Assembly: GCA_963820525.1 (NCBI GenBank)
Contig: CAWGAA010000003.1
Span: 1-64,000 of the forward strand
DNA: 64,000 nt
Source of the DNA: an uncultured Spirochaetota bacterium
GTDB taxonomy: Bacteria; Spirochaetota; Spirochaetia; SZUA-6; Fen-1364
Direction: 5' to 3'
Below the pieces are notes generated by a model. That model had not been told where the DNA came from. It searched no databases and was given only the letters and a program-made list of their open reading frames with translations. Positions 3,171 through 63,544 of this stretch are shown piece after piece; the stretch's first letter is position 1, and each line of letters begins with the position of its first letter. The translations under genes and the position numbers were made by a program.

Positions 3171-3252
3171 CACCTTAGCTGTTACATTATCTGTAATATT
3201 ATTTTTTTCGCACTCCCTACAAGCCATTGCAAGTCCCTGTAAGTTCAAAGAC

Positions 3253-3450
3253 ATGTTCGACAAGGATTTCTACCTCAACCTGGTGAACCTGGAGTATCGA
3301 AACGAGCTGGAAAAGCCGAAGTTCGACCCCACCCGGCCGGCCAGGTACTTCGCGGAGAACAGCGCTTCCCTGGCTGAAGAGATATCCGCGACCACACTCG
3401 CCAGCTTCGAAAAGATGTTCAAGACCTTCAACGCTTTCTGCGCGCCGTAG
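3253..3450 (+). CDS. Short hypothetical ORF, probably a C-terminal gene remnant
   Basis: Coding-like composition (MFDKDFYLNLVN...RPARYFAEN...FEKMFK) but no clear RBS. Confidence 0.35.
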   Translation: MFDKDFYLNLVNLEYRNELEKPKFDPTRPARYFAENSASLAEEISATTLASFEKMFKTFNAFCAP

Positions 3451-12641: not shown

Positions 12642-13322
12642 CTAGCGCGGACTCTCCCCATCCTGCCCGGCGTCCAGCCGGACGTAGATGTCGCCCGCCA
12701 ACCGCTCGTCGACGGCAAACTGCGAATAGCCGACCTGGAAGCTGAATGACGGCACCCGGCCGATGAGGGAGATGGGGGCGCCGGGGAGGATTCCCATGGC
12801 AAGGAGCTTCTGGACCGCGTGCGGGTCCTCGGAGTGGACATAGACGATGGTTCCCGCCTGGCCCGGCATGAGGCCGGCGAGCGGCCCCACGACCTTGTCG
12901 GAGCTCTCCCGCGCTTCCCGGCAGCAGCGCCCCGGCGGGATCGGCTTTCCGTGCGGGCAGACGTGGGGATGGCCGAGGAGCGTGCAGATCTTTTCGTCGA
13001 TGCCCTTGTGCAGCATGTGCTCGAAACGGCAGGCGGACTCCTCGGAGAGCTCGCCCTTCACGTCCAGGATGTCGATGAACAGGCGTTCGGCGAGGCGGTG
13101 GCGCCTCACCATGGTCCGCGCCTCCTCCAGCCCCGGCTCGCGAAGCGAGAGCTTTCCCGCCGACACGGAGAGAAACGAGAGCCGGACGAGCTCTGTAGCG
13201 GCCTCGCCGGCATCATCGACTCCCAGCTCCCCCACGGTAGCGGAGGGCTTGCCCTTCTCGAAGGTCGCGATCCACAGCCGCTCCAGGATCTCCTCGTGCT
13301 TTTCTCCCAGCGCTTCTTTCAT
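12642..13322 (-). CDS. DtxR/MntR-family metal-dependent regulator with C-terminal FeoA/SH3 domain
   Basis: RRHRLAERLF, ACRFEH, CPHGKPIP, then a FeoA-like KLLAMGILPG. The true start ATG at 13322 overlaps the feoB stop. Confidence 0.88.
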   Translation of the reverse strand: MKEALGEKHEEILERLWIATFEKGKPSATVGELGVDDAGEAATELVRLSFLSVSAGKLSLREPGLEEARTMVRRHRLAERLFIDILDVKGELSEESACRFEHMLHKGIDEKICTLLGHPHVCPHGKPIPPGRCCREARESSDKVVGPLAGLMPGQAGTIVYVHSEDPHAVQKLLAMGILPGAPISLIGRVPSFSFQVGYSQFAVDERLAGDIYVRLDAGQDGESPR

Positions 13323-34081: not shown

Positions 34082-34235
34082 CTCCCGCCGCAATAGAGAA
34101 TGGCAGCATGACCCTGATCTCCCTGTTCACTCCGGAGGGGCTGGTAAAGGTGGTCGCACCGTGAAGTTCAAAGCCATGTAGGCGCTTGCCGCGGGAAAGA
34201 AGAGGTAGCAGGCGGCAATCAGGAAAGGGTCCATG
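34082..34235 (-). pseudogene. hgcA: hgcA 3' remnant (last TM region)
   Basis: 154 bp that align to 60212-60366 of the intact hgcA, with about 7 substitutions and a 1-bp deletion. Confidence 0.92.
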
Positions 34236-38103: not shown

Positions 38104-38409
38104 GGGTTACTCCATTACGGCCTTGCCCAAGTTTTCCATGAGGGCCATGAGCACAGTGACGCTCATCAGACGCTGCTAGTATACACTCCCTGTCAATCGC
38201 CTTCATCGCCCATGTTCGCCGGTCTTCTGAAAGTGCTGTCACCGAGTCTTTCAAACCTCACGTAAATCGCTGCACGTTTCCGCTGTCGGGCCGAACGACG
38301 AGATGCGGCTCGCTGCCGAGACATTTCTCGGCTCGCGAAAAGGGTTCATAAGCGTCAAAGGCACGGCCGAAGCGATGGCCCTTCCGTCGGCATAGCGGGC
38401 AGCGCGCCC

Positions 38410-38822
38410 TCAATTACAGCAGCCGCTCTTCGCTCCACTGCCCCCGCCGCAGTCAGAGGCCGCGGCCGTGCTATTGCCGTCGGCCGACCCGGCCTTGCCT
38501 GCTGCTTGGCCGGCCTCTCCGCATCCGCCTGCCCCTGCCGCTCCCCTGCTCTCCCCACCGCACCCACAAGAGGGCTCTCTGCCGGTAAGGGCGCCGTTGA
38601 TGATCGCCGCGGCGCAACCTACGCCGCTTTTCACCTTTTATGGCTCCAAAGCGGCAGTTGGCTTCGCAGGCGCCGCACTCCATGCACAGGTCGCGGTCGG
38701 TGAGCAGGGCCTTGCCGCCGTTCACCCTATCGGAGTCCGGCATGAACACGCCGTGGGGGCACACCTCCCAGCAGCGGCCGCAGCCCGTGCACGCGGCCGG
38801 ATCGTAGGTCAGGGTCACAACG
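38410..38822 (-). pseudogene. hgcB: Second hgcB copy: 5' end replaced by IS21 sequence, +1 frameshift near 38635
   Basis: CTGCGRCWEVCPH, CMECGAC, then SGVGCAAAII...KSGCCN in another frame; aligns to 59737-60142. Confidence 0.92.
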
Positions 38823-39232
38823 ATCATGGCCTCGCCATACAATCGCGCAATCTCCCCCTCGCTGGGAATCTCCGTGCGCACATCCAGCCAGCCTTCCCGA
38901 AGTGCGAGGTCCCGGACGGCCCGGATAACCGTCTTATGTCGACCCGTGTCCCGATGGATGGCTTTTACCGACTGGCCGAGCCGAAGCCGCTGCACGATCT
39001 CCCGTAGCTCCACCATTTGTACCCTCCTTGGCATGTTCCCCTCCCTGCGCCGATGGATGATGAGATCCATCATGGCATAGGGGGTCGTTATTCCTGCCGA
39101 GAGGGGGGGTCGCCAAACGTGCCGACCGGGGGGTCGTTTTACTTGACGGGGAGGGGGTCGCTATAAATGACGGACTGGGGTCGTTTACTATGCCGGTTTA
39201 CACCAGGGGGTCGCTTACAATGCCGATTTACA
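38823..39232 (-). mobile_element. IS21-family left-end remnant (istA 5' fragment plus terminal repeats)
   Basis: MPRRVQMVELREIVQRLRLGQSVKAIHRDTGRHKTVIR HTH starting at 39034. Six GGGGTCG-N7-TGMCGR repeats at 39081-39226, and TGTAAA termini on the minus strand. Confidence 0.8.
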
Positions 39233-39470
39233 TGGGCGGGCTGCGGTATCATTCCACGTCCGATTCGCTGTAGGCTCGCCGCGTGCGTCTGTGGCGTCCT
39301 CCTGGTCTGTTGTTTTTCACCAACTCAACTAAACCAGATGAGGACGCCTCTTTTCTATCCTCAATTGTGCGAAAGAAAATATACGTTATCGAGCTGAATG
39401 TTGGCGCAGACCAAATCAATAACAAGAAATGCCATTCAGCGAATTGGCCTACTTTTTCAGCGATCCCTGA

Positions 39471-40796
39471 CTAATAGTCTTTGCCGAGAACCGCCGGTGG
39501 AATCTTACCATGCAACTTGAACCAGCGGATTGGGTTGTCCCTCAGTAGCCACTTGCCAACACTGAAAGCCCTTTCTTCGGTCATGGACTTCTCCATTACC
39601 TTGTCAGCAAGCACCTTCGCGATGTTCTCTCTCGCCATCACTGCGTGTCCGTAGCTTCCTTCAATGAAAATGAAATCTCCTCCAAAACCATGGATCTTGT
39701 TTGCCGGAATAGCATCCAGAAAATCGCTCAAGGCCCGACGCCCCGCAGCAGGATTGATGACCCACATCCAACAGAAATCCACTGTTACATTGGGAAAGTT
39801 CTTGGCCAATGTCACCAGCTCCTCCTGGTAGGGGTAGCTTATGTGGTAAATATCGAAGCGCACCTTTGGGTACTTGAAGAATAGGTTTGCCAGCAGTGTT
39901 GCCCTCGAGTTGCCGATAGTATTCCCGTTTCCCTCCTGTAAGCCCGTATGGAACTTCACCGTAAGGTCTTCCCTCGCACATTGCTGCAAGCTGAAATGAA
40001 CAAGATAGTCCTGAACCGCCCGCAACTCATCAATCGAAGGTAGACCAATGTTGCGCTCCCAGGCTGCATTCAAGAGGCGATTGAATATGGGCTCGATCTC
40101 CGACCGGGAGCGATCGGGAAACGCAATCGGCCGGAAATACGCCAGCGGGATCTTTAGCGCAGCAGCTTGCGATGCGTACGCCCTGAAACGCTCTTCAATG
40201 GATTCCAGGTAGTCGTCGAGGCAAAGTATTTCCCGCCCCCAGTGATCCTGCCAGCCCACCTCTTGTATCATTAGATGAGGAGAGAGCAAGTCCTGTATGA
40301 ATAGGCTGCGATCATAGTCCGGCGTCCACATTCGAGGGATAGGCCCAAGCCTGTCAAGACGGTTCCATAAAGCTATTGCTATCCCGGCTTTATTGAACGC
40401 CTCACGGTAGAATCCTGGCCTTCGTCGTTCATTCATTAGTTTTGACAACGGCTCTACCGTATTCTCGTTCAAGCCCTCCAACCCGTATAAGTCGCGGACA
40501 GCAAGTTCGAGGCAACGCCCGTATCCCGTTCCCCGCACGAAACCCCAGTAGGGTTCGATCAGCTTCCACTTCTCCCGTGGGCTCAATGTGTGGTCAGTCT
40601 GAACCTTCTCGACATCCTCCAAAGGGCAGCCAGCAGAGACGAGGTCACAATTTGCATAATGGACAAAAAGTCGCCCGAAGTCGACGCGCTGAGCGCACAG
40701 CTCTTCCTCTGTGTCCAGGTGTTCGTGCGTATCGATAATGCGTACGCTATCCAGATACTTTCGTATTTCCCCTTCAAGCCCTCTATCCGTAGGCAT
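39471..40796 (-). CDS. Amidohydrolase-superfamily protein (uronate isomerase-like)
   Basis: IIDTHEH, KFHTG, DIYH and GFGGD. Confidence 0.85.
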   Translation of the reverse strand: MPTDRGLEGEIRKYLDSVRIIDTHEHLDTEEELCAQRVDFGRLFVHYANCDLVSAGCPLEDVEKVQTDHTLSPREKWKLIEPYWGFVRGTGYGRCLELAVRDLYGLEGLNENTVEPLSKLMNERRRPGFYREAFNKAGIAIALWNRLDRLGPIPRMWTPDYDRSLFIQDLLSPHLMIQEVGWQDHWGREILCLDDYLESIEERFRAYASQAAALKIPLAYFRPIAFPDRSRSEIEPIFNRLLNAAWERNIGLPSIDELRAVQDYLVHFSLQQCAREDLTVKFHTGLQEGNGNTIGNSRATLLANLFFKYPKVRFDIYHISYPYQEELVTLAKNFPNVTVDFCWMWVINPAAGRRALSDFLDAIPANKIHGFGGDFIFIEGSYGHAVMARENIAKVLADKVMEKSMTEERAFSVGKWLLRDNPIRWFKLHGKIPPAVLGKDY

Positions 40797-40986
40797 AGCG
40801 ACCTCCAGTAATTATTGTAACCTCTCGAGCCCGCTCAAAGCACAGCTCAGCATCCGCGGAGAAAATGCACCACCTCGAAATTCGTAAATAGAGAATTCAC
40901 CTATCCTTTCCTACCCGATCTGAATTCATTCAGCGCTACGACCGCGCTTGCGGCGCTCCCTATTATCAGAATTTGATATGTCCGTT

Positions 40987-42492
40987 TTAGGTTAAGTACA
41001 TGCCAATGCGCTCACTGATTTCCTCGTAGCTCAAATGCCTTTCATTCAAATCTTCCAGCTCACCAGCAATTCTGAAATCCCTAAATACAAGTATGCGCCT
41101 GGCTAAATCTATCATTTCAGCCATCTCCGATGAGATCAAGATAATACTTTTACCCTCATCATTTGCCATTTTCCAGATCAAGTCATGTATATACTCTTTG
41201 GCTCCTACATCAACGCCAATTGTTGGCTCATCGAGTATCAGGATATCGCAATCGGCGACAAGAGATTTGGAAATAGACACTTTCTGCTGATTCCCGCCGG
41301 AAAGATTGTTGACTATCTGCATAGGCGATGGCGTCCGTATGTCCAGTTTTTGTATCATTGACATTGTCTGTTCAAATTCTTTTCTAGGACTTATAAAGCG
41401 CGTTATTCGTGATGCAAGCCTTTTCCATATCGTTATATTGACGTTCGTATTCACAGATGCGCTTAGTATTAGACCCTCTTCTCTTCTGTTTTCTGAGATA
41501 TAGCCTATTCTGTACTTCTGCAGACTGTCATGTACTGAGGTGATTTTTGCTTTTTGGCCTTTCACGATTATCTGACCCGATTCATACGGGTATTCGCCTA
41601 TGACTGTCTTTGCTAGTTCTGTACGCCCTGAGCCAACCAGTCCGTAAAGTCCAAGTATCTCACCTTTATAAAGCTTGAGACTTATATTCTTAAACAACTT
41701 GCTAGTCAGATTTTGCAGTTCGAAAACTGGAGCCGACCTGTCACTCTTGAGATAGCCTCGCCACTCATCTCTTGGATTCCGACCTATCATCATGTTGACA
41801 ATATTCTCTCTCAACAAGCCTTCGACAGCTCGCGTGCCTACGCATCTTCCATCACGCAGGACGGTTACCACATCGCAAATCTCTAGTACTTCCTCCAGTT
41901 TATGTGACACAAATACAATGACCACGCCTTGTGATTTCAGTTTTCTTAGCAGCCTGAACAGGTTTTCGACTTCATTTGACGTCAGTGAAGACGTAGGCTC
42001 GTCCAGCAGCAAGACCTTCGCGTCTGCCGATAGCGCTTTTGCGATTAGGGCCAACTGTTTTTGAGCTGTGCTCAATCGCCCTATTTCGATATTCGGCGGT
42101 ACGTTCAAGCCCACTATTTGCATGTACTTACTTGCTTCTTTTTTCAGTTTCTTCCAGTCGATGGCAAGCGATTTTTTAAATAGGTAGAGCTTATCCAGCA
42201 TGATGTTTTCTGCAACAGTGCTCAGAGGGATTACTTGAATTTCTTGGCTGACAAGGCTTATTCGCCTATCGATTGCATCCTTGAAATCATGAAGGGCGAG
42301 CGCTCTTCCGTCGAGAAAGATTTCGCCCTCATCGGGCTTGTAGACACCACACATGATGTTGATCAATGTTGATTTTCCCGCTCCGTTTTCGCCTAACAGA
42401 GCATGTATCTCGTTTTCATTGAACGCCATCGATACATTATATAGCGCCTTAACCCCGGGAAAGGATTTGCTTACTGATTTGATCTCAAGCAC
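40987..42492 (-). CDS. Sugar ABC transporter ATP-binding protein (RbsA/MglA type)
   Basis: GENGAGKST, LLDEPT and LSGGNQQKV. Confidence 0.95.
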   Translation of the reverse strand: MLEIKSVSKSFPGVKALYNVSMAFNENEIHALLGENGAGKSTLINIMCGVYKPDEGEIFLDGRALALHDFKDAIDRRISLVSQEIQVIPLSTVAENIMLDKLYLFKKSLAIDWKKLKKEASKYMQIVGLNVPPNIEIGRLSTAQKQLALIAKALSADAKVLLLDEPTSSLTSNEVENLFRLLRKLKSQGVVIVFVSHKLEEVLEICDVVTVLRDGRCVGTRAVEGLLRENIVNMMIGRNPRDEWRGYLKSDRSAPVFELQNLTSKLFKNISLKLYKGEILGLYGLVGSGRTELAKTVIGEYPYESGQIIVKGQKAKITSVHDSLQKYRIGYISENRREEGLILSASVNTNVNITIWKRLASRITRFISPRKEFEQTMSMIQKLDIRTPSPMQIVNNLSGGNQQKVSISKSLVADCDILILDEPTIGVDVGAKEYIHDLIWKMANDEGKSIILISSEMAEMIDLARRILVFRDFRIAGELEDLNERHLSYEEISERIGMYLT

Positions 42493-42564
42493 AAATCCGC
42501 CCTTTTCTTCGCAAAATGTCCTGCCGGCCCGTAAGGCCGGTAGGACATGATTCGTAAATCACTC

Positions 42565-43587
42565 TCACTTAGAGAGATACTTCACTGTCAGATCAGCTTT
42601 GATTTGCGTTGTTACCTTTTTTAGATCTTCCTTGTAGGTCCTTACATTGTCCTTATTCAGAACAACGATTCCAGCGTTTATCAAATATGGGGCTCCCTTG
42701 GCCGGCTTATAGCCTTTGGCCATGAGCTCCAATATCGACATCGCCAGATATCCTTGACCATACGGGTTTTGTGCGATTGAGCCATCAAGGTATCCCTTCT
42801 CAATTGCATCGAGAATAATGGGGTCATCGTCTATCCCAACGCACCTCAAGTGAATTCCGTTCTTCTTCTCGAAGTCCGTGAGGAACTTCGCAAGAGCAAC
42901 CGTAGGCACAAAACCTGTTACGATCGCTCCCTTGACGTTCGTCATGTTTGCAGACACAGCAGCTTCGATCTTCTCGATAGCCTCCTGCTCAGATCTGATG
43001 TTCGCAATATCCACAAGGGTTATATCTGGATACTTCTCTTTTACCTCATAAATTGAATCTTTGCGAATCTTCGTGTTAGGGTCTTCGAGGAGTTCAAGTA
43101 CGTTGATGATTGTTCCCCTACCTCCAACTGCCTTGAATACGGTCTCAGCAGCTATCTTGGCGGCATAACCCACATCTGTCATCACTGCGAAGCTGGCTGG
43201 AGTAGGCTGAATGGATGAAGCACCATATTGTACAATGGCACCGCCTTGCTTCACGACTTCAGAATAAAGACCGTTACTCGCACTTGGATCAGAAGGAAAA
43301 GCGGCCATGAACTTATAGCCTTGAGCAACGAGAGCAAGAACACCTGTGTTCATGCTGTCCTGGTTCCAATCCGGGCCTACTTGGATTTTTACTTCGATGT
43401 TCGGATTGTCAGCGGCAAAACCTTCCGCCCCCTTCTTGCACGCTTCACCGAATGGATGTGGAGCCGGGTAATACCAGCCGAGCTTGATTTTCCCTCCTCC
43501 TTTTTCACCAGCGCCTCCTGCCCACAGGCAAAACGTGCCTGCCAGTAGCATTAGAATTGCCGCTGCAAGGATTTTCGAACTTTTCAT
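42565..43587 (-). CDS. Sugar ABC substrate-binding protein (RbsB type)
   Basis: Signal peptide, VGIDD and IAQNPYGQGY. Confidence 0.9.
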   Translation of the reverse strand: MKSSKILAAAILMLLAGTFCLWAGGAGEKGGGKIKLGWYYPAPHPFGEACKKGAEGFAADNPNIEVKIQVGPDWNQDSMNTGVLALVAQGYKFMAAFPSDPSASNGLYSEVVKQGGAIVQYGASSIQPTPASFAVMTDVGYAAKIAAETVFKAVGGRGTIINVLELLEDPNTKIRKDSIYEVKEKYPDITLVDIANIRSEQEAIEKIEAAVSANMTNVKGAIVTGFVPTVALAKFLTDFEKKNGIHLRCVGIDDDPIILDAIEKGYLDGSIAQNPYGQGYLAMSILELMAKGYKPAKGAPYLINAGIVVLNKDNVRTYKEDLKKVTTQIKADLTVKYLSK

Positions 43588-43661
43588 GACTCGCTCCTCC
43601 TGTGAATTCTTCGATCGCTCCTTAATAATCCATCAACGATGGATCAATACACATTCCTGCC

Positions 43662-44627
43662 TCAGGTCCTTTCTCCCTTTGCGATTCGCATGCGGAAGAA
43701 GTCAACTCCGACAGCGAGTAGAATGATAAAACCAAGGAAAGTGGACTCGAAATAGATGTTGACTCCAAGCATGATAAGTCCATTGCGGATAAGCGCCATC
43801 AACAAGCCAGAGAAAAAGAAACCAAAAGGGGCTACTGTTCCACCTGCCAGTGACGTTCCGCCTAAAATGGAGACGGCAAAAGAAACAATCAACCAATCCT
43901 GTCCAGTTGCGGGTTGAGCAGTCCCCATGCGTGAAATCCACAACATAGCTGATATTGAGGCGAGAACACCTGAAATGATGTGAGCGAGCATAATCATTCT
44001 GTCAGTCTTTATACCCGAGAGTCTTGCGGCCTGTATGTTCCCGCCGGTAGCCAGCAAGTGTCTGCCCACTATTGTAAATCGAAACACGTAGAAACCGATA
44101 CAAAGCATGGCGATCATCAGAATAAGCATTAGAGGGAATCCTCCCACATCCCCTTTGCCTATGATAGTAAAGGAATCCGATATCAGATATGGCTTTCCTT
44201 TGGATATGCCATTCAATAGGCCGAGGTACACAAAACTCGTTGCGAGCGTGACGATAAATGTGTTCAAGCCCATTTTTGTTATAATCAGACCATTCACTGA
44301 ACCTGCTACAAAGCCTACCAGCAGTCCAGCGGCCACTGCTATTAAAGGATGAACATGAAACACTTCCATCATTACGCCCACAATGACCGTTGTGAGGCCT
44401 CCAATTGAGCCGAGGGACAGGTTCATCCCCCCTACCACTAGCACTACTGCCTGTCCCAGGGCGATGAAAACGTTCTGTGACGCTGAGCGAAACACATTGA
44501 AAAGGTTGAACGGTGTGAAAAAGGCCTCGGCAGAGACTGAGAAGACGATGAACAGAACAATCGTCGCAATAATAGTACTGGAATCGTTGCGCTTTAGAAA
44601 TGAACGGAAGATATTCTGCTTCTGCAT
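43662..44627 (-). CDS. Sugar ABC permease (RbsC type)
   Basis: GGMNLSLGS, GGNIQAARLSGI and ILGGTSLAGG. Confidence 0.93.
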   Translation of the reverse strand: MQKQNIFRSFLKRNDSSTIIATIVLFIVFSVSAEAFFTPFNLFNVFRSASQNVFIALGQAVVLVVGGMNLSLGSIGGLTTVIVGVMMEVFHVHPLIAVAAGLLVGFVAGSVNGLIITKMGLNTFIVTLATSFVYLGLLNGISKGKPYLISDSFTIIGKGDVGGFPLMLILMIAMLCIGFYVFRFTIVGRHLLATGGNIQAARLSGIKTDRMIMLAHIISGVLASISAMLWISRMGTAQPATGQDWLIVSFAVSILGGTSLAGGTVAPFGFFFSGLLMALIRNGLIMLGVNIYFESTFLGFIILLAVGVDFFRMRIAKGERT

Positions 44628-44903
44628 CTTTGCTAGCTCTGAAACTTCATTCGATTTGCAGAGGCTAGATACACATTATCGTCGCGCTGTTTCCTGAAAG
44701 CAATATCTAAAAAGCTATACTTTCCCTTTAAAAAATTGACAAATTCACCCTTAAAACTTGAAACTGGGCTATTTTCTCTTTTTGAGAAGAATTTCCAAAG
44801 GGTCTTCCAGATACAAGACAAGGCTGCAGCAATATCCGCAGAACAGAGACCCACTGACGAGTGCGGCTTGAATCTCTCAATCCGCACGACAAGCTGCCCC
44901 GGT

Positions 44904-46607
44904 TCAGGCCCTTATCCTTAGCTGCGATGGATAAAATCCCTTATACTTTTTGAAGAGGGTGTAGAAATAGCTTACATTCGAATACCCGACGCGCTTCGCA
45001 ACCTGGCACGCCTTTAGGGTTTTGAACCGGAGGAGCTCTTCAGCCTTCCGCAGTCGAAGGTCGTTCAGATAAGTCGTGAAAGACATCCCTATTGCGTCGT
45101 GCAACAATCGCCCAAGGTACGTAGAGGAGAGATTGAACTGACAAGAAAGCACCTTCAGTGAGAGCTGCTCAGAGTAGTTCCTATTGACGTACCGGATTAT
45201 TCTATCTATCTTGCTTTCAGCCCGCTTCTCAAACATGATGGTTCTGATCACATCTTTCGAGATCCGACAAAGCCATTCCAGGGTTTTTCTTGGTGTCTTC
45301 TGGTTGAAGAGGTTCTTATAAAGACTCTCGAAGTCACTCAAGAGGGTCTGTTCATCCAAATCATTGATTCTCAGGAGATGAATGAGAATTGAGAGAACTT
45401 CGATTGAGAAGCCGCGGAAGAACTCCGGCGTTATGAGCTCTGACTCAACAAATGTGTTGTAAACATCCTCGAAGAACTTATCGACCTGGGTTTCATCCCC
45501 GTTTAGGATGGAAGCGGTGAGGAGCTGTAAAGAGACGCTGGAAAACTCAGGCTTCTTTAGCAGGAAGTCATCGACATTTTCCCGGGTTATGATGTTCACA
45601 GGAAGATTGTTGACAGGTTCGATAGCTAGGCCGTTGAACCAGTCAGCAGCTATCTTCATTGGCAGGGCGCCATCCGCCTGAGCAGGCTGGAATGTGAGCG
45701 CGTGGAGTTTTCCTTCCTTCACCAGCTGCATTCCCTTCTGCGTGTTGCCTGCGCTAACCATGATGATATCTTCTCTTCCAGCCTTCCTTATCGCCTCGTT
45801 GATCCCGTCCAGCCATGTTCTGTCGTCTGGGCATATGATCCCCTGTAATCCATGCCCGAACCTCCTGATCCAGCCCGTCACCAAGTTCATAGTCCTTTCG
45901 GCGCTAATCTCACCTTCTTTCCCAGCCGGACTCATTGCCAGACACTTCATCTTCGGGGCGAACTTCTTCAACTCCGTAATGACAGAGTATGTTCTGGAGT
46001 AATAGCAGGAGGTCCCCGGTAGGTGGCGGACGATAACATACCCGCCTTCGAATCCCATGCTCTTAGCGAAATGCCGCGCTAGAATTCGAAACGACCCCCA
46101 ATCGTCAGGGCCACACCAAGAGATGATGTACTTATGCGCTTCGACTTTAGGCATCAGGTTGCTTACGATTATCGGGATACGCTGCGCGTGCATTTCCTTT
46201 ACCCAACTCGTGCACGCCTCTATGTTAATGGGCACCAAGATCACGAGGTCTGGCTTCTCCCGGATCGCCTTTGAAACTTGCCTGCTCTGTCCTTCCATGG
46301 TCATATCCGCAGTCAGCGTCAGTAGCCTGACACCATATCTTTCCGCGATCTTGGATAGACCTTCAGCAAAAGCAGGAAAATACGGATGACGCGTGCCTGG
46401 CTGTAGGTAAACAACTTTCTTGCCCTTGGGGCCGTTTCCCGGGGATTCTGGCAGATTGACTTTCTTGATCCCCCAACCTGCATACTCCATGTTGTACCAG
46501 TGCCGTTCATCATCTCTTGGAAATCGCTCGGCTCTCTGTGGGCGGGGCGGGATGTCCTTGCCCTTCGTGTTCCACAATATCAGTAGACGGTCTTCACTAA
46601 AAAGCAT
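44904..46607 (-). CDS. AraC-family regulator fused to an RbsB-like sugar-binding domain
   Basis: PBP-like core (KPDLVILVP, CGPDDWG, LTFQPAQADG) and C-terminal AraC HTH (VGYSNVSYFYTLFKK). No signal peptide. Confidence 0.85.
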   Translation of the reverse strand: MLFSEDRLLILWNTKGKDIPPRPQRAERFPRDDERHWYNMEYAGWGIKKVNLPESPGNGPKGKKVVYLQPGTRHPYFPAFAEGLSKIAERYGVRLLTLTADMTMEGQSRQVSKAIREKPDLVILVPINIEACTSWVKEMHAQRIPIIVSNLMPKVEAHKYIISWCGPDDWGSFRILARHFAKSMGFEGGYVIVRHLPGTSCYYSRTYSVITELKKFAPKMKCLAMSPAGKEGEISAERTMNLVTGWIRRFGHGLQGIICPDDRTWLDGINEAIRKAGREDIIMVSAGNTQKGMQLVKEGKLHALTFQPAQADGALPMKIAADWFNGLAIEPVNNLPVNIITRENVDDFLLKKPEFSSVSLQLLTASILNGDETQVDKFFEDVYNTFVESELITPEFFRGFSIEVLSILIHLLRINDLDEQTLLSDFESLYKNLFNQKTPRKTLEWLCRISKDVIRTIMFEKRAESKIDRIIRYVNRNYSEQLSLKVLSCQFNLSSTYLGRLLHDAIGMSFTTYLNDLRLRKAEELLRFKTLKACQVAKRVGYSNVSYFYTLFKKYKGFYPSQLRIRA

Positions 46608-46662
46608 ACGGAATCTCCAATAAAAGGGCCCCACGAAGCATTGAAGGCACGGTCAGCGAGCG

Positions 46663-48640
46663 ATTGATAGCAACTACTATAGGTCCTCTGCGGGTGATTG
46701 CCAAGTGGTGAGGCCGCGAGGCGGCATAAAGCGGGTCTTGCAAGCCGTGAGCTGCGGATTGAGTAGCCGCCCATGAGGGGCATCAAGGGGAGAATCGACG
46801 CGCGAGTTGCGGCGGGCAGAAGAAGGGATGCCATCGCTCTCTGTATCCACACTGAAAGGACGGACTGGCCCCCAGGGTGGAGGGAGGGGAGAGGAATCAG
46901 TTCAGCGACGCGGGGTGCAAGCCGGGTGGAGCCTTGCCGGTCTTGATGAGATGTCGCAGGATCTTGAGGACCTGCTTGGGGTCTGTGATGACGGCAAGCA
47001 CCTTCATCGGTTCGCCGCATCGCGCGCAGATCAACGGATCCGCGTCGTAGACCTTCTTGATCAGCCGAGCCCAGGCGGCACGGCTCTGCTTGGCCGACAC
47101 GGAGTCATCGGATTGGTGATCGTCGGGTGCACTGATGCGAACGGAAAGGTGGGGTGAATGCGCGCTCTTCCAGCCGTCGGGAGCGAGCCGCACGATGTAC
47201 GGGCTGGTAAGCCATGTGCCTCGACCGCGCGAGGAGTACAACCCGTAGCCGCGGATCAAGCGTGTGCGCGAGTCGGGCAGGTGCTGCAGGACCTCGGCGA
47301 CAAACTCGGTGGCGGGGAAGACTTTGGTGTCGGTGCGGAAGTAGTCGTTGTAGGGGGCATGGTAGACGACGGTATCCGTGCCTCCCTCGTCCACGAGAAG
47401 CTTCTTCAGCGAAAGGGGCGGCCGCACGATGTACTGCGAGAGCGCTTGGGGGCCTTGAGGGAACCCACGGGGATGCGGACGGATCCGTCAACGGAGAAGC
47501 CGGAGTGAGTCCAATCGACCATGCTCCTCGCCAGTCGTTTGTTCAAGAGCTTCCGCTGCAGGAAGAACGCGATGACCCTCTGGCGGAACCATGCACTCAT
47601 CTTCGCGAGGTCCACGACGGGGAGGTGGATGAATCTCCCTGTTGACACCGCTCGGAAACTGACCCTTTCACCGCCCGGAAATTGACCCACCTCCAGCCCT
47701 ATCTCCGGTAGAATCAGGTTGCCTAAACCAATCCACCGGAGGGAAGGATACTGAAGATGGGTCAAGCGCATGTTATCAGGCACAAGGTCTTCATAGAAGG
47801 CCGTTCCATTCGTCAGGTCACCGCACGCACAAACGAAAGGCAAAAGGAGGGCGAGAAGCTTCGGGTTCAGCATAAGGAGCCCGAGTGACACGGTGTGTCG
47901 CTTCATGTATAGTCCCTACGGCTGGGGTGGGTCAATTTCCGAGCGGTGAAGTGGATCAATAACCGAGCGGTGTTAGCACTCCCCTCCTTGTCGAACCCTC
48001 CCTCCAGGAAAAGCCCGTGCCAGTGCGGGTTCCATCGAGCGAATTCCCCCGAGCTCTGGAACACGATGACGCCGCCGGTGCGGATCTCCTTGCCCGCGGC
48101 TGCCATGGTGAAATCCCGTACAAACCCATAGACGAGTCGGCTGATCTCGCCGTGAAGCCGGCGGTCGTGACGGAAGAACACCCGCAGCACCTTGGGCACG
48201 GTGAAGACGAACTGCCGATGAGGCAGCCGTAGCAGCAGTTGCTCATTCATGTACTCGCCGAACAGGAGGGTCCGTTTCTGGGAGCAGGAGGGACAGAGGT
48301 GGAATACCTTGCAGGAGAAGGGTCGAAAGTATTCGGTCCTGCATCGCGGGTTGGTGCACTGGATGCGCGCGATCCCCTTGGTGTAGTCGCCGCACTCAAG
48401 AAACCGCTCCACAGCCTTGGTGAGCCGATCCAGGCGGAACCGTCCCACACGCCGGGCGTAGTGCGCCTCGTATCGTGCCGAGAAGCCCCCAAAGTGGGTA
48501 CGGAACAGACTCTGGAGCGAGCTGGTGCCCCGCTGCCGGTATGTTCCGGGTGGCGTCGCATCCAGGGACAGCGCCAGTTGCTCTGCCACAAGGGAGTAGA
48601 TGGCCTCAAGAGCGTGCCGCTTGCTTCCTGCGGGCACGTC
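46663..48640 (-). mobile_element. IS91-like (rolling-circle HUH) element, transposase disrupted
   Basis: Zinc domain (CGD...C..C...FSCK...CPSC), HRQFVFTVP, HUH motif NPHWH, QYIVRPP, RLIRGYGLYS and DPLICARCG. Interrupted at 47640-47978 and frameshifted near 47450. Confidence 0.88.
47640..47978 (+). mobile_element. 339-bp non-autonomous IS21 deletion derivative (MITE-like)
   Basis: TGTTGACACCGCTCGG...CCGAGCGGTGTTAGCA termini with internal repeats. 5-bp TSD CTCCC at 47635-47639 and 47979-47983. Contains the istA start MGQAHVIRHKVFIEGRSIRQV. Confidence 0.88.
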
Positions 48641-56891: not shown

Positions 56892-58703
56892 GCGAGAACC
56901 GGCCTTCGAATTTCGATCCCGGCATACACGTCGTCCACTACGCGGACGAGTTCAGGGCCCAGCGGTTGGATCATCGGACGCTCATCAACGATTTCGGACG
57001 GCAGCGCGAACCACTCGACGGAGAGTGGAGCTTCGTCGTGGACCAGTACGACAGCTTCCTGCGCCTCCGCTGGTTCGAGGAGCGCGAGAGGGATCCCGAA
57101 GGCCGGCCCCTTCCCCGGGATTACGATTTCGAGGCGTGGGAACGGATGCCCGTTCCCTCCTGCTGGAACGTGAGAAAGCCCGATTACCTCCTGTACGAGG
57201 GATCCTCGGTCTACACGCGAACCTTCCCATACAAGCCGGCGCAAGCGGGGCGCGCCCGTCAACCCCGCGTGTTCCTCAAGGTCGGCGCGGCCAACTACGA
57301 ATGCTTCGTTTTCCTGAACAAACGCTGCCTGGGCTCCCACCTGGGAGGCTCGACGCCGTTCTTCGTGGAGGTCACCCCGCACCTCCTGCCGGACAATCGC
57401 ATATCCCTCGTCGTGAACAACCGCAGGGAGAGCTTCCACGTCCCGGCGGACAATACGGACTGGTTCAATTACGGGGGGCTGTACAGAAGCGTGGAGCTGA
57501 TCTACGTTCCCGAGACCTTTATCAAGACCTACCAGGTCTCTCTTGTGCCCGGAGGCAGATTCGGCGCATTACGCGCGATGGTGGACCTCGACGGTTCCGA
57601 TGCGGAGGGGGAAGCGACCCTCCGCATCCCCGAGCTCGCGGTGGAGACACGGTTCGCCGTGTCCAAGGGGCTCGGCGCCTGTGAGCTCGAGGCTTACCCC
57701 AAGCTTTGGTCCCCGGAGTCGCCGAAGCTCTACAACGTAGAGATCTCCTATTCCGGTGGATCAGTGACAGACGTCGTGCGCGATAGAGTGGGATTCCGGG
57801 AGATCGCAACGCGCGGAACCTCGCTCCTGTTGAATGGAAAGCCGATCTACCTCAGGGGCGTGAGCTGCCATGAGGACAGCGTGGAGAACGGGAAGGCGGT
57901 ATCGCCCTCCGAGATCAGGGGAATGCTGGAGACCGTGCGGGAGCTCGGCTGCAATTTCCTGCGCCTCGCGCACTACCCCCACGCGGAGGAAGCGGCCCGG
58001 ATGGCCGACGAGCTGGGGATGCTCCTCTGGGAGGAAATCCCCGTGTATTGGGCGATCGACTTCGCGAATCCCGAAACATTCGCCGATGCGTACAACCAGC
58101 TCTCGGAAGCTCGTGCTCCGCGACCGCAACCGCGCCAGCGTGATCCTTTGGTCCGTGGGAAACGAAAATCCGGACAGCGACGAGCGGCTCTCCTTCATGT
58201 CGAGGCTCGCCAGCCGGGCGCGGGAGCTCGATCCCACGCGGCTCGTGACCGCAGCATGTCTCTGGGACACGCGGAACATGCGCATCGCGGACCGGCTTGC
58301 CGAGCACCTCGACGTACCGGGGATCAACGAATACTACGGCTGGTACGTCATGGGCTTCGATCGCCTGGAGCGGTTCTTCCGCGGGAGCGCCCCCGGCAAG
58401 CCGGTCATCGTGAGCGAATTCGGTGCCGATGCTCTGGCCGGGCATATTGGGGAAAAGAATGAGCTTTTCGGCGAAAACTATCAGCTCCACGTCTACCGCG
58501 AACAGATCAGGGTGATAAGCAAAGCCGATTACGTGGTCGGAATGACGCCGTGGATCCTCTTCGATTTCCGCTGCCCGCGGCGGACCAACGCGTTCCAGCG
58601 GGGATACAACCGCAAGGGATTGGTCGCCGCAGACCGCGTCCAACGGAAGCTTGCGTTCGCCGTTCTACAAGAGTATTACCGCGAGCGTGCTGAAAAGGAT
58701 TAG
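56888..58703 (+). CDS. GH2 glycoside hydrolase (beta-glucuronidase/galactosidase-like), +1 frameshift near 58107
   Basis: DWFNYGGLYR and LRLAHYPH, then WSVGNE, VSEFG and NRKGL in the second frame. Confidence 0.87.
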
Positions 58704-59224
58704 CCGCGGGCGGAACGCTCACGCCCCGCCGTGAGCCCGTCCAGGTCGAGCCGCATCGTTTCCCCGTCGAAAAACTCCACGGTCAGTGCTCCGCCATCAA
58801 GGGTCGCCCTTACAACAAGTCCCTCGAGCTGATCGAAGGCTTCGGGCTCGAGGCGGGCCACGATGAGAGCGGCGAAATAGTGCACACCGGCGGGAAGAAG
58901 CCGAATGCCCAGCGTGGGAACGACGCTCCTCAGATAGCGCACGTTCCCCCCCGTGTCCTCTTCTCCAGGGCTTCCCGTGGAAGCAGTCTCCCAACCCGCA
59001 AGCCCGCGTATGAAGCTGACCCTATTTCCCGCCCTGGCGTACCCGGCGGGAGAGTCCGAACACCGTATCTCCGGCTCGCCCTCGTCCCATCCCAGGGGAT
59101 ATCCGCCCTCGCGGAAAAAAAGCGGCCTTGTGCACTCCACGCGATGGACCGTGATGAGGATATCGCCCTTCACCGCGACCCATCCCGAGCCGTGCCCTCC
59201 CTCATCGGTCTCCAGAAGGGGATA
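58700..59224 (-). pseudogene. 3' remnant of an unknown gene, cut by the IS91-like end
   Basis: Coding-like frame (YPLLE...FREGGYPLG...VEFFDGET) with no start of its own; begins at the IS terminus. Confidence 0.55.
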
Positions 59225-59697
59225 ATTGATAGTAACTACTATAGGTCCGTCTGCGGGTGATTGCCAAATGGTGAGGCCGCGAGGCGGCAAAAAACGGGTC
59301 TTGCAAGCCGTGAGCTGCGGATTGAGTAGCCGCCCGTGAGGGACATCATGGGGAGAATCGACGCGCGAGTTGCGGCGGGGAGAAGAAGGGATGCCATCGC
59401 TCTCTGTATCCACACTGAAAGGACGGACTGGCCCCCAGGGTGGAGTGAGGGGAGAGGAATCAATTCAGCGACGCGGGGTGCAAACCAGGTGGAGCCTTGC
59501 CGGTCTTGATGAGATGTCGCAGGATCTTGAGGGCCACTGCTTGGGGTCTGTGATGACGGCAAGCACCTTCATCGGTTCGCCGCATCGCGCGCAGATCAAC
59601 GGATCCGCGTCGTAGACCTTCTTGATCAGCCGAGCCCAGGCGGCACGGCTCTGCTTGGCCGACACGGAGTCATCGGATTGGTGATCGTCGGGTGCAC
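59225..59697 (-). mobile_element. IS91-like 3' (ori-side) remnant
   Basis: Near-identical by eye to 46663-47132; encodes AWARLIKKVYDADPLICARCG. Confidence 0.92.
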
Positions 59698-59736
59698 CGA
59701 CCAACGCTTATGATCACTTGGATGCGTTGCGCGCCC

Positions 59737-60159
59737 TCACTTGCAGCAGCCGCTCTTGGCGCTCCCGCCGGCGTCGGCAGCCGTCACCCCGCTTATGCTG
59801 CCGGCCGACCCGGCCTTGCCTGCTGCTTGGCCGGCCTCTCCGCATCCGCCTGCCCCTGCCTCTCCCGTGCTCTCCCCACCGCATCCGCATGCCGACCCTC
59901 TGCCGGTAAGGGCGCCGTTGATGATCGCCGCGGCGCATCCCACGCCGCTTTTCACTTTTATTGCTCCAAAGCGGCAGTTGGCTTCGCAGGCGCCGCACTC
60001 CATGCACAAGTCACGGTCGGTGAGAAGGGCCTTGCCGCCGTTCACCCTTTCGGAGTCCGGCATGAACACGCCGTGGGGACACACCTCCCAGCAGCGGCCG
60101 CAGCCAGTACACACGGCCGGATCGTAGGTCAGGGTCACCACGTTCGCTATGTATTTCAT
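59737..60159 (-). CDS. hgcB: Mercury methylation ferredoxin HgcB with extended C-terminal tail (140 aa)
   Basis: CTGCGRCWEVCP, the CMECGAC signature, GVGCA and terminal GCCK; ATGA overlap with hgcA. Confidence 0.95.
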   Translation of the reverse strand: MKYIANVVTLTYDPAVCTGCGRCWEVCPHGVFMPDSERVNGGKALLTDRDLCMECGACEANCRFGAIKVKSGVGCAAAIINGALTGRGSACGCGGESTGEAGAGGCGEAGQAAGKAGSAGSISGVTAADAGGSAKSGCCK

Positions 60160-61190
60160 AGAAGGCTCCATTCCTTCAGCTTGGAAAGCACAAGGGCGGC
60201 CATGCTCAATACTCCCGCCGCGATATAGAATGGCAGCATGACCTTGATCTCCTTTTTCACTCCGGAGGGGCTGGTGAAGGTGGTCGCACCGGTGAAGTTC
60301 AAAGCCATATAGGCGCTTGCCGCGGGAAAGAAGAGGTAGCAGGCGGCAATCAGGAAAGGGTCCATGCCGGCGGCCAGGCCCAGGCCGTGCAGCAGTGCCG
60401 CGGTTCCCGCCGCTCCCAGGATCCACCCTTTCACGGAGAACAGGCGGAAGGGAATAAAGGGCAGGAGCACGGGGGCAAGGAACGAGCCGCAAAGGATAGA
60501 TGCCAAGCCCAAGGCGAACAGGGGCAGACCATTGGTCCACCCTCGGCTGAAGACTATTCCCGCAGGCGTCACGCCCATGATCACGAACGCGGCCAGGAGA
60601 AACGCGGGGTAGCGCATGAGGGATTGGCTCAGCTCCATGGGGGCCAGGGTGAGCCGCTCTGTAATGCCGAAACGCACGCGCCGCATCTCCGGGCTCGCCT
60701 TCATGCCCGCGCTCATGTACGCGGGGAGGTCCCGCGCGCGCACCGGCCCGAAGCGGACACGGAACCCCGTCCTCTGCTCCACGACGTGGGCGCGGATCCC
60801 GGGGGCGCCGAGCTGGGGAAGGATGATGGTCCTATGGCGCACTACTTCGGCCAGCCGTGTCGCCTCGATCCGCTCCACCAGCTCTTCGGTGCCGAAGGTC
60901 CCCTTTCCAGCGGCGCACCAGACGTTGATGCCCTTCGTGTCCAGAACGAGGATCCAGCCGTCGATGCCGCCCAGCTCGCGGCGAAGGGTATCGAAGCTGA
61001 GCTTGTAGTTGGCGCTCGCGAAAACGGGGGAATCGAAGCCGGGGCTGCCCATGGCGTACAACCCCTGCGGCACGCTGTATCGGTTGCGATAGCTTCCGAT
61101 GCGGCAGCGCACGGCTCCCCACCTGTCTTCAGGCGACCATGCAGGGTTGGTTCTCAGGTACCTGGGTGGTGAAAGTATCGCGCTCGGCAT
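60156..61190 (-). CDS. hgcA: Mercury methylation corrinoid protein HgcA
   Basis: ANYKLSFD, cap helix GINVWCAAGKG, LPQLGAPG, FGPVRA, and a C-terminal TM domain ending FTGATTFTSPSGV. Confidence 0.97.
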   Translation of the reverse strand: MPSAILSPPRYLRTNPAWSPEDRWGAVRCRIGSYRNRYSVPQGLYAMGSPGFDSPVFASANYKLSFDTLRRELGGIDGWILVLDTKGINVWCAAGKGTFGTEELVERIEATRLAEVVRHRTIILPQLGAPGIRAHVVEQRTGFRVRFGPVRARDLPAYMSAGMKASPEMRRVRFGITERLTLAPMELSQSLMRYPAFLLAAFVIMGVTPAGIVFSRGWTNGLPLFALGLASILCGSFLAPVLLPFIPFRLFSVKGWILGAAGTAALLHGLGLAAGMDPFLIAACYLFFPAASAYMALNFTGATTFTSPSGVKKEIKVMLPFYIAAGVLSMAALVLSKLKEWSLL

Positions 61191-61223
61191 CGAGTGCCAG
61201 GGTACGCCGGGCGGAAATGCCTG

Positions 61224-62504
61224 TCAATTCGCCAGATGGGGCGTCGGCCGCTCCCCCTTCACCCGCATTGCGGCAAGGTGGCCCAGGAACACAACGGAGC
61301 TTGCAAGGAGGAAACCCGCCGCGGCCGCGAATGTCCGTGAATACCCCTGCCCCCTGATGAGATAGCCTCCCGTCACGGCGGAGAAGGCAAGCCCAAGGGT
61401 GGTTGCCATGTTGGCTACTCCGGACATGAGGGGACGCCAGCGTGAAGTGACGATCTGCAGGATATAGACCTGCATGGCCGCCTCGTTGATCGAGTTGGCC
61501 GCCGTCATTCCCGCCCACCCGAGCGCAGCCGCCGCCCAGTGCGGGAAAATCGAGAGGGGAACGACGCTCGCCATCATGACAAGGAGGCTCACCAGGGAAA
61601 CAGGACCTGTTCCCCTGCGTTTTGCCAGGACGGGCATGAGCGGGGTGAACGCGATTGCGGCAATCGAGGAGACGCTCACCAGGAGCCCGACCAGCGCGGT
61701 GGGAAGCCCGAGCTTCTCGTCGAGGTAGACGTTGTAGAAGTTGAGCACGCCCCCGTAGCCCATCTCGCGGAGGAAGCGTATCAGCGCGATCACGGAAACG
61801 ATCCCGAGGGGAAAGCGCCGCACCGAGGCCCTCTCCCTCTCCTCGCCGCCCGGAGCTTCGCGGAACATCGACAGGGCGACCAGACCCGGGATGAGAATGA
61901 CCACCGCCGTCCAGAGCGAAAAGCCATAGGGAGCGGGAGAGGAGAGCGAGCCGAGGTTCAGAGATGAAAAGAGCTGGGGCAGGAGGCCCCCGATGAGGCT
62001 GCCGCCGAAGGACGTGAGGGATACGATCGTGCCGTTGAAGGCGAAGGCGTAGGTGCTGGATCCTCCCCCGGCCGCGCTCATCAGGGCCGGGTTGGAGTTC
62101 ACCAGGAATATCGCACCGCCGATTGACGAAAGCACCCGGGAGGCGACGAGCGTCTCCATGACGCCTCCGCCGGGCAGGAAGGCAGCCACCGGCGCCATCC
62201 CCCAGCCCGCAATCGCCATGATGCCGCCCGATATCATCGACCGCCGGATGCCGAAGCGCACCCCGATCGCTCCGGCGGGCACGCTTGCCGCCATGTGGAT
62301 GATGTATCCGAGGAAATTGAGATTCCCCATCACCTCGGTTCCATATCCGAGACGGCGCACGAAGAGGTTGGTGAGAAGATACGTGATGCCCCAGTAGGTG
62401 AAACCGAGGAGACCGGCTACGGTGAACAGCAGGTAGACATTGCGGTCGAAACCTCGAATCGCGGAAGCCCAGCTCTGCCGCTGCCCCCTGTCAGGTTCTC
62501 TCAC
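61224..62504 (-). CDS. MFS transporter
   Basis: About 12 hydrophobic segments and a motif-A-like GAIGVRFGIRR. Probable GTG start at 62504. Confidence 0.88.
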   Translation of the reverse strand: MREPDRGQRQSWASAIRGFDRNVYLLFTVAGLLGFTYWGITYLLTNLFVRRLGYGTEVMGNLNFLGYIIHMAASVPAGAIGVRFGIRRSMISGGIMAIAGWGMAPVAAFLPGGGVMETLVASRVLSSIGGAIFLVNSNPALMSAAGGGSSTYAFAFNGTIVSLTSFGGSLIGGLLPQLFSSLNLGSLSSPAPYGFSLWTAVVILIPGLVALSMFREAPGGEERERASVRRFPLGIVSVIALIRFLREMGYGGVLNFYNVYLDEKLGLPTALVGLLVSVSSIAAIAFTPLMPVLAKRRGTGPVSLVSLLVMMASVVPLSIFPHWAAAALGWAGMTAANSINEAAMQVYILQIVTSRWRPLMSGVANMATTLGLAFSAVTGGYLIRGQGYSRTFAAAAGFLLASSVVFLGHLAAMRVKGERPTPHLAN

Positions 62505-62534
62505 CTCCGAGTCCCCCGATCCCCAATGTCTTAA

Positions 62535-62563
62535 AGTATCGCGGAGGCCGGGCAAGAGGTCAA
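62535..62563 (-). promoter_or_regulatory. sigma70-type promoter upstream of MFS-hgcA-hgcB
   Basis: TTGACC-17 bp-GATACT. Confidence 0.55.
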
Positions 62564-62628: not shown

Positions 62629-63423
62629 ATGGCACGAATCCTCATCGGCACGAGCGGCTACTCTTACGACGATTGGGTGGGGCCCCTCTATCCCCCGGGA
62701 ACTCCCAAGAGCGGCTTCCTCTCCCTCTACGCCCGGGAGTTCCCCATTGTGGAGCTCAACTTCTCCTACTATGCCCAGCCGAGCCCCCGCACTCTCCAGA
62801 GAATGGTGGAGAACACCCCCGAGGGGTTTCTCTTCTCCCTGAAGGCGCATCGAAGCATGACTCATGAGATCTCGGATACCTGGGAGAAGGACGTGGCAGT
62901 CTTCCGCGAGGGGATCCAACCCCTCGTGGAGGCGGGCCGCCTGAGCGCGGTGCTTCTCCAGTTCCCCTACAGCTTCGCCTACACTCCGGAGTCCCGGCAG
63001 AGGCTTGCCGCCCTCTGCGACAGGCTCTCGGGCCTGCCGCTCGCCGTCGAGTTTCGAAAAAGCGAATGGCAGAAAGACGCGGTTCTCGAGGGGCTTCGCC
63101 GGCGGTCGATCGGCCTGGTGAGCGTGGACGAGCCAGACCTTCCCCGCCTGCTCAAACCCACAGCCGAGGTCACCGCGGATCTTTCCTATGTTCGATTTCA
63201 CGGCAGGAACAAGGAAAACTGGTGGGCCGGAGACAACGCCTCCCGCTACGATTACCTCTACGGCAGAGAGGAGCTCATTCCATGGGTGCAGAGGATCAAG
63301 GAGATCCTCCACAGGGCCCGCGTGCTCCTTTTGTTCTTCAACAACCACGCGAGGGGAAGGGCGGTTCAGAACGCCCGGGAGATGCGGGAAATCCTCCGCG
63401 AGGAGGGGCTCCCGGTCGCGTGA
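62629..63423 (+). CDS. DUF72 (YecE-like) protein
   Basis: IGTSGYSY, VELNFSYY, LLQFP, YVRFHGR and FFNN. Confidence 0.92.
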   Translation: MARILIGTSGYSYDDWVGPLYPPGTPKSGFLSLYAREFPIVELNFSYYAQPSPRTLQRMVENTPEGFLFSLKAHRSMTHEISDTWEKDVAVFREGIQPLVEAGRLSAVLLQFPYSFAYTPESRQRLAALCDRLSGLPLAVEFRKSEWQKDAVLEGLRRRSIGLVSVDEPDLPRLLKPTAEVTADLSYVRFHGRNKENWWAGDNASRYDYLYGREELIPWVQRIKEILHRARVLLLFFNNHARGRAVQNAREMREILREEGLPVA

Positions 63424-63544
63424 GCCCCACTCCCTGCCCTCCCGTTCGCGAACGGGTGGGAAACCGTGTACGCGTTCTTCGGCATCTCTTCATCCAAGGA
63501 TTCTTCCCGGGCACCGAATCAGTCCGGGACCATGCGGAAGAGCT

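Follow-up and report, generated by a model that had tools for sequence, protein, structure and literature searches.

Elements of the IS91 family start replication at oriIS, insert beside a tetranucleotide without duplicating the target, and often miss terIS; 82 bp of the ori were enough for IS91 when the transposase was supplied in trans (10.1101/2025.01.24.634351). In complex class 1 integrons, the distance from sul1 to the insertion sequence common region element ISCR1 downstream of it is 24 bp, the variable DNA adjoins the ori side of the element, and its oriIS region carries outward promoters (PMC6218425), and circles from aberrant rolling-circle replication are described as being rescued by recombination in the integron 3' segment, which leaves a partial duplicate behind (PMC7707992, PMC3575428). 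For ISCR28, two sequential oriIS were reported to capture the gene between them (10.1101/2025.01.22.634252). Here, we describe a locus at which an ISCR-like ori end adjoins the mercury methylation genes hgcAB. It is located in the first 64 kb (referred to as the window) of contig C3 (CAWGAA010000003.1) of an uncultured Spirochaetota bacterium, the genome of which (GCA_963820525.1) amounts to 5.05 Mb in four contigs. The hgcAB genes are presumed to have spread horizontally, but they are not known to have a vehicle. Our preferred reading, to which we assign a probability of about 55%, is that hgcAB reside at their ancestral locus and that an ISCR-like ori end arriving later used hgcB and its neighbors as homology arms for the integration of DNA circles; the locus would then be an ISCR-like capture platform anchored on the native hgcAB operon. 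The proposal would be an analogy to the presumed use of the integron 3' segment by ISCR1. It is built on the following observations: ancestral synteny, congruent trees, three co-oriented ori ends, and three arrangements of duplicates.

Both hgcA (60156-61190, minus strand) and hgcB (59737-60159, minus strand; stop codon at 59737-59739) are intact. HgcA passed the NCBIfam model NF040863 with 399.8 bits (cut-off, 275) and carries NVWCAAGKG, which agrees with the canonical cap-helix signature N(V/I)WCAAGK; PMC5255934 names the NVWCAAGKG motif as necessary for HgcA. HgcB passed NF040864 with 113.5 bits (cut-off, 99), adjoins HgcA, and has two 4Fe-4S motifs and a terminal Cys-Cys pair. By these sequence features, hgcAB would be the canonical genes of a predicted mercury methylator. 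Before the terminal Cys-Cys, the Gly/Ala-rich C-terminal tail of HgcB (59737-59920) is some 30 residues longer than that of the nearest relative, G004. Upstream of hgcA, a gene for an MFS transporter (61224-62504, minus strand; likely GTG start at 62504), with a predicted promoter-like site upstream that begins at 62563, forms a single minus-strand run with hgcA and hgcB. A DUF72 gene (62629-63450, plus strand) is an ancestral neighbor.

Immediately downstream of hgcB and in the same orientation, there is a 5'-truncated IS91/ISCR-like remnant of 473 bp (59228-59700, minus strand), which consists of the last ~75 transposase codons and an oriIS-type end. Its edge at 59700 is 36 bp from the hgcB stop, close to the distance of about 40 bp given in a preliminary description of this DNA, which had also recognized that the element has lost its 5' part, including any terIS. 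That description was likewise right about the preservation of the ori-side terminus but placed it at 59225; the element ends at 59228, and positions 59224-59227 are the AATT target tetranucleotide. The remnant matched the larger IS91-like copy of the window (46663-47135) at 96.4% over 476 bp and gave a weak match to the ISCR model NF052416. Since no short-read contig among the matches listed bridges the junction of remnant and hgcB, the 36-bp junction has the genome assembly as its sole source. The 28-bp spacer between remnant and hgcB has no other match in the genome.

The remnant end is a genuine oriIS-type terminus, for a number of reasons. (i) Its end motif, TATAGTnGTTnCTAYC, is shared with 16 other ends; the genome contains 17 occurrences, compared to a single one of the reversed control. 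(ii) In every transposase-bearing copy examined, the motif is found downstream of the transposase stop and is followed by GTTN, CTTN, ATTN, or AATN. (iii) The sequences downstream of the stops of 16 related copies diverge widely, yet 14 of them converge on TATAGTnGTTnCYAYC-like ends, past which similarity breaks off at one of these tetranucleotides. (iv) In two other genomes (G007 and G018), the motif likewise follows related transposases, at a downstream distance of about 220 bp. The conserved oriIS end is thus combined with a target tetranucleotide and no target duplication, as is characteristic of IS91/ISCR elements. Sister copies stop at varying 5' points, among which we could define no common terIS. 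An outward sigma-70-like promoter match (TTGGCA-18-TATAGT; 59238-59267, minus strand) is contained in the ori end and faces away from hgcAB, toward the DNA beyond the ori; it is a consensus match only, agreeing at 10 of 12 positions, with 3 such sites found versus 0.6 expected. With 18 ori ends in 5.05 Mb, the chance that one is found within 100 bp of a given gene end is approximately 4 in 10,000, a figure that overstates the surprise because ori ends cluster in few plastic regions. On the far side of the ori, a cut reading frame (58703-59227) matched no Pfam or NCBIfam family and had no match in 40 relatives, so that the empty-site allele cannot be reconstructed.

The ori end is likely a later arrival at an ancestral hgcAB locus. 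The surrounding sequence (up to 20 kb) was retrieved for 20 of the 29 best non-self hgcA loci. Thirteen of these are from the same family, in which 22 of 24 genomes had an HgcA match. In 12 of the 13 same-family loci, hgcA adjoins DUF72 and/or MFS genes; in most cases, LOG and the arg operon come next, the orthologues of which are present here at contig positions 74103-82300. An MFS orthologue (55 to 62%) adjoined hgcA in 8 of the 20 relatives' loci. On the other side, the ABC pair and CorA (24869-20337 in the window; 24869-21269 for the ABC pair) have orthologues that come directly after hgcB in G004, and orthologues of window genes were detected 10 to 25 kb downstream in 6 of 13 loci examined. 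Both flanks are thus ancestral, and the insertions amount to about 34 kb on the hgcB side and 10.7 kb on the opposite one. An HgcA tree (FastTree; 186 of 190 rows, short or stop-containing rows being excluded) placed HgcA of this genome in a clade of 15 same-family genomes and 2 metagenome contigs with a support of 99, and among the nearest named relatives outside the family are Spirochaetota. Each of the three starred HgcA splits recurred in a tree of six neighboring proteins (11 taxa). The HgcA phylogeny is congruent with that of its neighbors, which indicates vertical inheritance of hgcAB here.

None of the 20 relatives' loci, and none of the 29 in an overlapping set, contained an IS91-like gene, and the ori-motif and transposase matches of relatives were not beside hgcA among the matches listed. 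We also surveyed 80 metagenome loci, the best of 568, and 80 GTDB loci, the best of 572; the downstream sequence reached at least 1.5 kb in 45 and 67 of these, respectively, and 5 kb in 22 and 55. No IS91-like transposase was found near hgcA in either set (0/80 and 0/80), in which many loci are short; one locus, L219, contained a single ori-like 16-mer with one mismatch and no transposase. Furthermore, hgcA had no match in 72,556 plasmids, 50,697 phages, or IMG/VR. A general link between hgcA and IS91-like elements found no support in the 160 surveyed loci, and delivery of hgcAB by the element described here was rejected on the basis of the synteny on both flanks and of the trees. The preliminary description had seen in this element a candidate vehicle for the horizontal spread of hgcAB and had named relatives with the same locus, no IS, and a congruent phylogeny as evidence to the contrary, which is largely what the comparison of the HgcA and neighbor-gene trees and the screen of other hgcA contigs revealed.

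The DNA between hgcB and the ancestral ABC pair ending at 24869 (24870-59227, ~34 kb) is accessory. It contains sugar ABC clusters, a GH2 gene, and IS256 and IS21 pieces, and its GC content falls to 0.49 in 38826-46665. Within this DNA we located a partial second hgcB (38402-38825, minus strand; 88.9%), which lacks the first six codons, has one frameshift, and is fused to the start of an IS21-like transposase, and the 3' fragment of a second hgcA (34082-34235, minus strand; 94.8%; counterpart at 60212-60366). Both fragments had been noticed previously, together with two more IS91-like pieces (2822-3314 and 46666-~48640), and all four were confirmed. Past the window end, a copy of the DUF72 3' end (contig positions 71303-71376; last 74 bp plus tail, counterpart at 63377-63450) is fused to an 80-bp ori end (71224-71303). 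Co-oriented ori ends are thus found at 46666, 59228, and 71224, spaced by 12,562 and 11,996 bp. The duplicates constitute three pairs in which accessory DNA, an ori, and a truncated element follow one another, in this order, between the two copies, namely, hgcB (38402-38825/59729-60145), the hgcA 3' end, and the DUF72 3' end, and the accessory blocks bracketed by partial duplicates and ori ends comprise 8 to 26 kb. The permuted order on one strand rules out that all fragments originated from one tandem duplication.

Between the second hgcB and the intact gene, 9 of the changes in 73 core codons are synonymous and 2 are non-synonymous (pS, 0.176; pN, 0.012; pN/pS, 0.07). Since decay after a local duplication would not give such a pN/pS ratio, the second hgcB diverged as a working allele, and the pattern of changes indicates divergence under purifying selection; alternatively, it may be a long-lived duplicate that retained ancestral bases. 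A 59-bp tract (59802-59860 in the intact hgcB) is identical in both copies within an otherwise variable tail (P = 0.0002 within the tail; P = 0.03 over the whole pair) and possibly corresponds to a crossover or conversion tract. Five synonymous bases of the fragment type were retrieved in contigs of run X4 that do not have the frameshifts of the fragments, and the IS21-hgcB2 junction was found along with the hgcB2 frameshift in run X1. The simplest reading would be that two sister-lineage hgcB alleles met and recombined here. The IS21-like left end next to the second hgcB (38826-39230) has internal repeats and ~80 transposase codons in frame with it, giving a 200-codon hybrid frame (38471-39073), and occurs just once in this genome.

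To place these duplicates in the context of the whole genome, we analyzed low-copy non-IS direct-repeat pairs; 8 pairs representing IS ends were excluded, and two hits belonging to one pair were counted once. Seven of the 29 pairs straddle an ori end, compared to 0.9 expected (0 of 20,000 placements). In four pairs, the inner copy either overlaps the inner edge of an element or is at most ~30 bp from it (59729, 71303, C1:1302474, and C2:65168). In the clusters other than the one at hgcAB, parts of sirtuin-type and ATPase-associated genes (labels derived from translations) are duplicated at the inner edges of intact elements, and sister elements carry flanking host DNA of varying length to new sites, one of them on another contig. 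At positions 1258600-1310300 of contig C1, three diverged copies of a sirtuin-type gene (82 to 90%), two of them with the next gene, are interleaved with three ori ends; this region would be a second platform of like form.

According to our proposal, rolling-circle replication from the ori in a sister lineage would have proceeded across the truncated element, entered hgcB (or hgcA or DUF72), and continued into foreign DNA, and the product would have closed as a circle at a target-like tetranucleotide. The circle would have recombined by homology into the resident allele, three or more times, and later deletions would have eroded one repeat and fixed each cargo. In this way, hgcB sequence would have travelled on ori-linked DNA between close relatives, and what this traffic brought would have been sugar-uptake and surface-protein genes, not mercury methylation. 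The ISCR-like geometry of the preliminary description is borne out, with hgcB occupying a sul1-type position; the ori end is genuine, and there are marks of ori-linked DNA traffic that involve hgcB.

A number of points weigh against this proposal. (i) The gene order requires at least three nested events plus erosion. (ii) The seven repeat pairs amount to only three clusters, and the chance of at least three clusters is 0.06; IS-rich regions gather duplications of any origin. (iii) No convincing clean target-like tetranucleotides were found at the far ends of the duplicates. (iv) For the hgcA and DUF72 fragments, pN/pS ratios are ~0.4 (7 changes) and ~0.3 (2 changes), respectively, and both fragments are too short for a selection test. 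(v) Hairpins are predicted in the ori ends, but all five ends folded no better than shuffled sequences (z-scores of -1.1 to +0.2). (vi) The second hgcB is fused to an IS21-like start, and IS21 may have made this junction. (vii) According to two papers, ISCR transposition lacks experimental proof (PMC13393415, PMC9376610).

In a rival scenario, the ori end is an incidental neighbor: hgcAB would be native, an ordinary deletion in an IS graveyard would have joined a dead IS91-like end to hgcB, and the fragments would stem from IS21/IS256 or from general duplication and deletion. Most of the 18 ori ends are on truncated copies, IS256, IS21, and miniature-element pieces are assembled within one 35-kb stretch, and the interruption of the cognate transposase, the junction of IS21 and hgcB2, and the weak enrichment at the cluster level are in line with it. 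What it fails to explain is that inner copies abut the inner edges of elements with one polarity and at three separate loci, and that the spare hgcB diverged under purifying selection. We regard the graveyard scenario as a serious but clearly less probable alternative to integration of circles at the hgcAB locus.

Another concern is that two strains were merged in the assembly, in which case the diverged duplicates and the junction of remnant and hgcB would be chimeric. Short-read contigs reveal one- or two-base assembly errors at 58107, 59249, and 59535, among them single-base indels; the frameshift seen in the GH2 gene at 58107 is probably spurious, and because of such single-base errors in this stretch, small frameshifts in the genome are not to be trusted. 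The unbridged junction and the 4 to 11% difference between the duplicates would also fit a merger. On the other hand, the contig is 1.08 Mb long, contamination is 2.3%, and run X1, possibly the source sample, holds both ori flanks and the IS21-hgcB2 junction, while run X3, from a separate study, holds the ori-DUF72 junction. We consider an artifact of this kind very improbable.

The second of the co-oriented ori ends belongs to a near-full cognate IS91/ISCR-like element (46666-~48640, minus strand), which encodes an HUH transposase with a zinc domain. Its gene is interrupted, with an IS21-like miniature element (47647-47978; 330 bp with 58-bp inverted ends and no second copy in the genome) inside it; a further IS91-like 5' piece is located at 2822-3314. 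In agreement with the preliminary description, no intact IS91-like transposase was found within the window. Several are present elsewhere in the genome, where the search that it had suggested revealed three apparently intact same-clade open reading frames (C2:57155, C2:65453, and C1:1302179; 448 to 449 codons from the likely GTG) that carry HUH and YxxR motifs and are 61 to 74% identical to pieces of the cognate enzyme. The HUH motif, zinc domain, and catalytic tyrosine are present in the interrupted cognate copy and in the three open sister copies, the remnant itself retaining the transposase C terminus alone. An intact IS91-like copy scored above the cut-off of NF033538. Two further regions caught our attention. 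Positions 5700-67000 of contig C2 contain at least 10 copies of a sister IS91-like element, 99% identical and mostly 5' truncated, some of them head to tail (13306-14802) and three cut at one internal point, which are signs of recent rolling-circle activity. At ~700000-800000 of contig C1, dozens of spaced repeats resemble an integron-like cassette array.

The presence of open transposases bears on a further idea of the preliminary description, namely, that a transposase supplied in trans could move hgcB, hgcA, and the MFS gene. The unit envisaged there is too short, since any excision would involve the whole 11,996 bp from one ori to the next (59228-71223), with the third ori, beginning at 71224, closing the stretch past the window end. 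Besides hgcB, hgcA, and DUF72, this stretch comprises the MFS gene together with the promoter-like site and another 7.8 kb of genes. As a rule, rolling-circle initiators stop at a second origin, and excision of the 12-kb unit is possible in principle. The nick sites at both ends are intact over the last 12 bases, the second ori retains 80 bp, compared to the 82 bp reported in 10.1101/2025.01.24.634351 to be enough for IS91 with transposase in trans, and the arrangement recalls the ori-to-ori sandwich capture by ISCR28 described in 10.1101/2025.01.22.634252. The three same-clade genes could provide the enzyme. In addition, the ori-DUF72 junction, also present in a contig of run X3, corresponds to a 4,070-bp deletion of the unit, and a second whole copy may once have been present.

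Other data argue against such mobility. In contigs of four runs, a weak test, we found no junction joining the ori to DNA upstream of hgcA and no circle junction; the only ori joint was the chromosomal ori-DUF72 one. The gene and the element were not seen together in another context, be it the 160 other hgcA loci or the 20 relatives' loci, hgcA had no plasmid, phage, or IMG/VR match, and its phylogeny is vertical. The intact transposases show only the limited identity to the cognate enzyme given above, and the sub-terminal sequences differ. Furthermore, the interval from the remnant to the operon promoter contains 30 target-like tetranucleotides, of 7 kinds, at which replication could stop early, and no transfer functions were identified in the unit. 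It is thus unlikely, in our judgment, that a same-clade HUH transposase acting in trans, starting at the first ori and ending at the second, releases this ori-bounded MFS-hgcA-hgcB unit as a circle for delivery to other cells, or that sister species have already exchanged hgcB alleles here by way of such circles. If true, the mercury methylation genes would have their first defined mobile form in this unit.

The fragments described above also matter for surveys of hgcA, in which partial and diverged hgcA or hgcB copies would be counted as extra alleles. A related observation was made in the genus g3 (G021, G019, G007, G022, G015, G016, G009, G018, G013, G014, and G012; L049-L055, L057, L059, L061, and L063) and in G002 (L043), which have hgcA at the orthologous locus without an adjacent hgcB. 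The cap helix of the orphan HgcA of g3 is drifting (NVWCAAAE, NVWCAAAG/Q, NVACG, DVASG, and DVWSA), and several of these genomes contain a second hgcA with hgcB elsewhere, ~50% identical. The orphan looks like a paralogue that is decaying or changing function after the gain of a second hgcAB, and it would count as a false positive in hgcA surveys.

In the literature searched, most subscription papers and the bioRxiv supplements being outside this search, we found no previous description of an IS or island next to hgcAB. The adjacency of hgcAB and an IS91-like end appears to be new and is confined to one genome; it does not account for the patchy distribution or the spread of hgcAB. Its value resides in a precise, testable junction and in what would be an ISCR1-style architecture on native chromosomal genes of an environmental bacterium, for which two other loci in its genome provide parallels.

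A comparison with known systems allows a number of conclusions. (i) The likeness to ISCR1 in complex class 1 integrons consists of an element some tens of bases past a conserved gene (24 bp from sul1 there and 36 bp from hgcB here), variable DNA adjoining the ori with a partial duplicate of the anchor beyond it, and an outward promoter match in the ori end. In contrast, the anchor here is a native chromosomal operon instead of an integron, the element has no transposase, the duplicates are 89 to 95% alike rather than identical, and the cargo is metabolic; none of the 52 window open reading frames scanned by Pfam corresponded to intI1, attI1, or the qacEdelta1-sul1 3' conserved segment. With 128.5 bits in NF052416 (cut-off, 925), the transposase is outside ISCR clade Ia, to which ISCR1 belongs, although the element would work like ISCR1. 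(ii) With IS91, IS801, and IS1294 the elements share an HUH transposase with an N-terminal zinc domain, a tetranucleotide after the downstream ori end, and termini in which no inverted repeats were seen. The sister elements on C2 use GTTC/GTTT/CTTA-type targets, which resemble the CTTG/GTTC targets of IS91, whereas the window subfamily ends at AATT/AATC and has no defined terIS. The classical IS91-type copies of the genome read YxxRY, and the window subfamily reads YxxR, with one tyrosine, which we take to be a difference between Y2 and Y1 catalytic regions. (iii) Among the best plasmid matches to an intact transposase (39%) was an IS91-family element upstream of rmtE2 on plasmid NZ_KU130396, which is presumably ISCR20; AGTTCCTATC, 276 bp after its stop, corresponds to the end motif found here. 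As in the ISCR28 sandwich structures, two sequential ori ends enclose a gene. The ISCR28 structures and the NZ_KU130396 element involve resistance genes on mobile replicons, whereas the unit described here is chromosomal and was not seen elsewhere. (iv) Like the hgcAB loci of known or predicted methylators, this one consists of canonical, chromosomal genes. The survey by McDaniel et al. 2020 (PMC7438021) reports no hgcA near insertion sequences or transposases, a pattern to which the present hgcAB locus is an exception.

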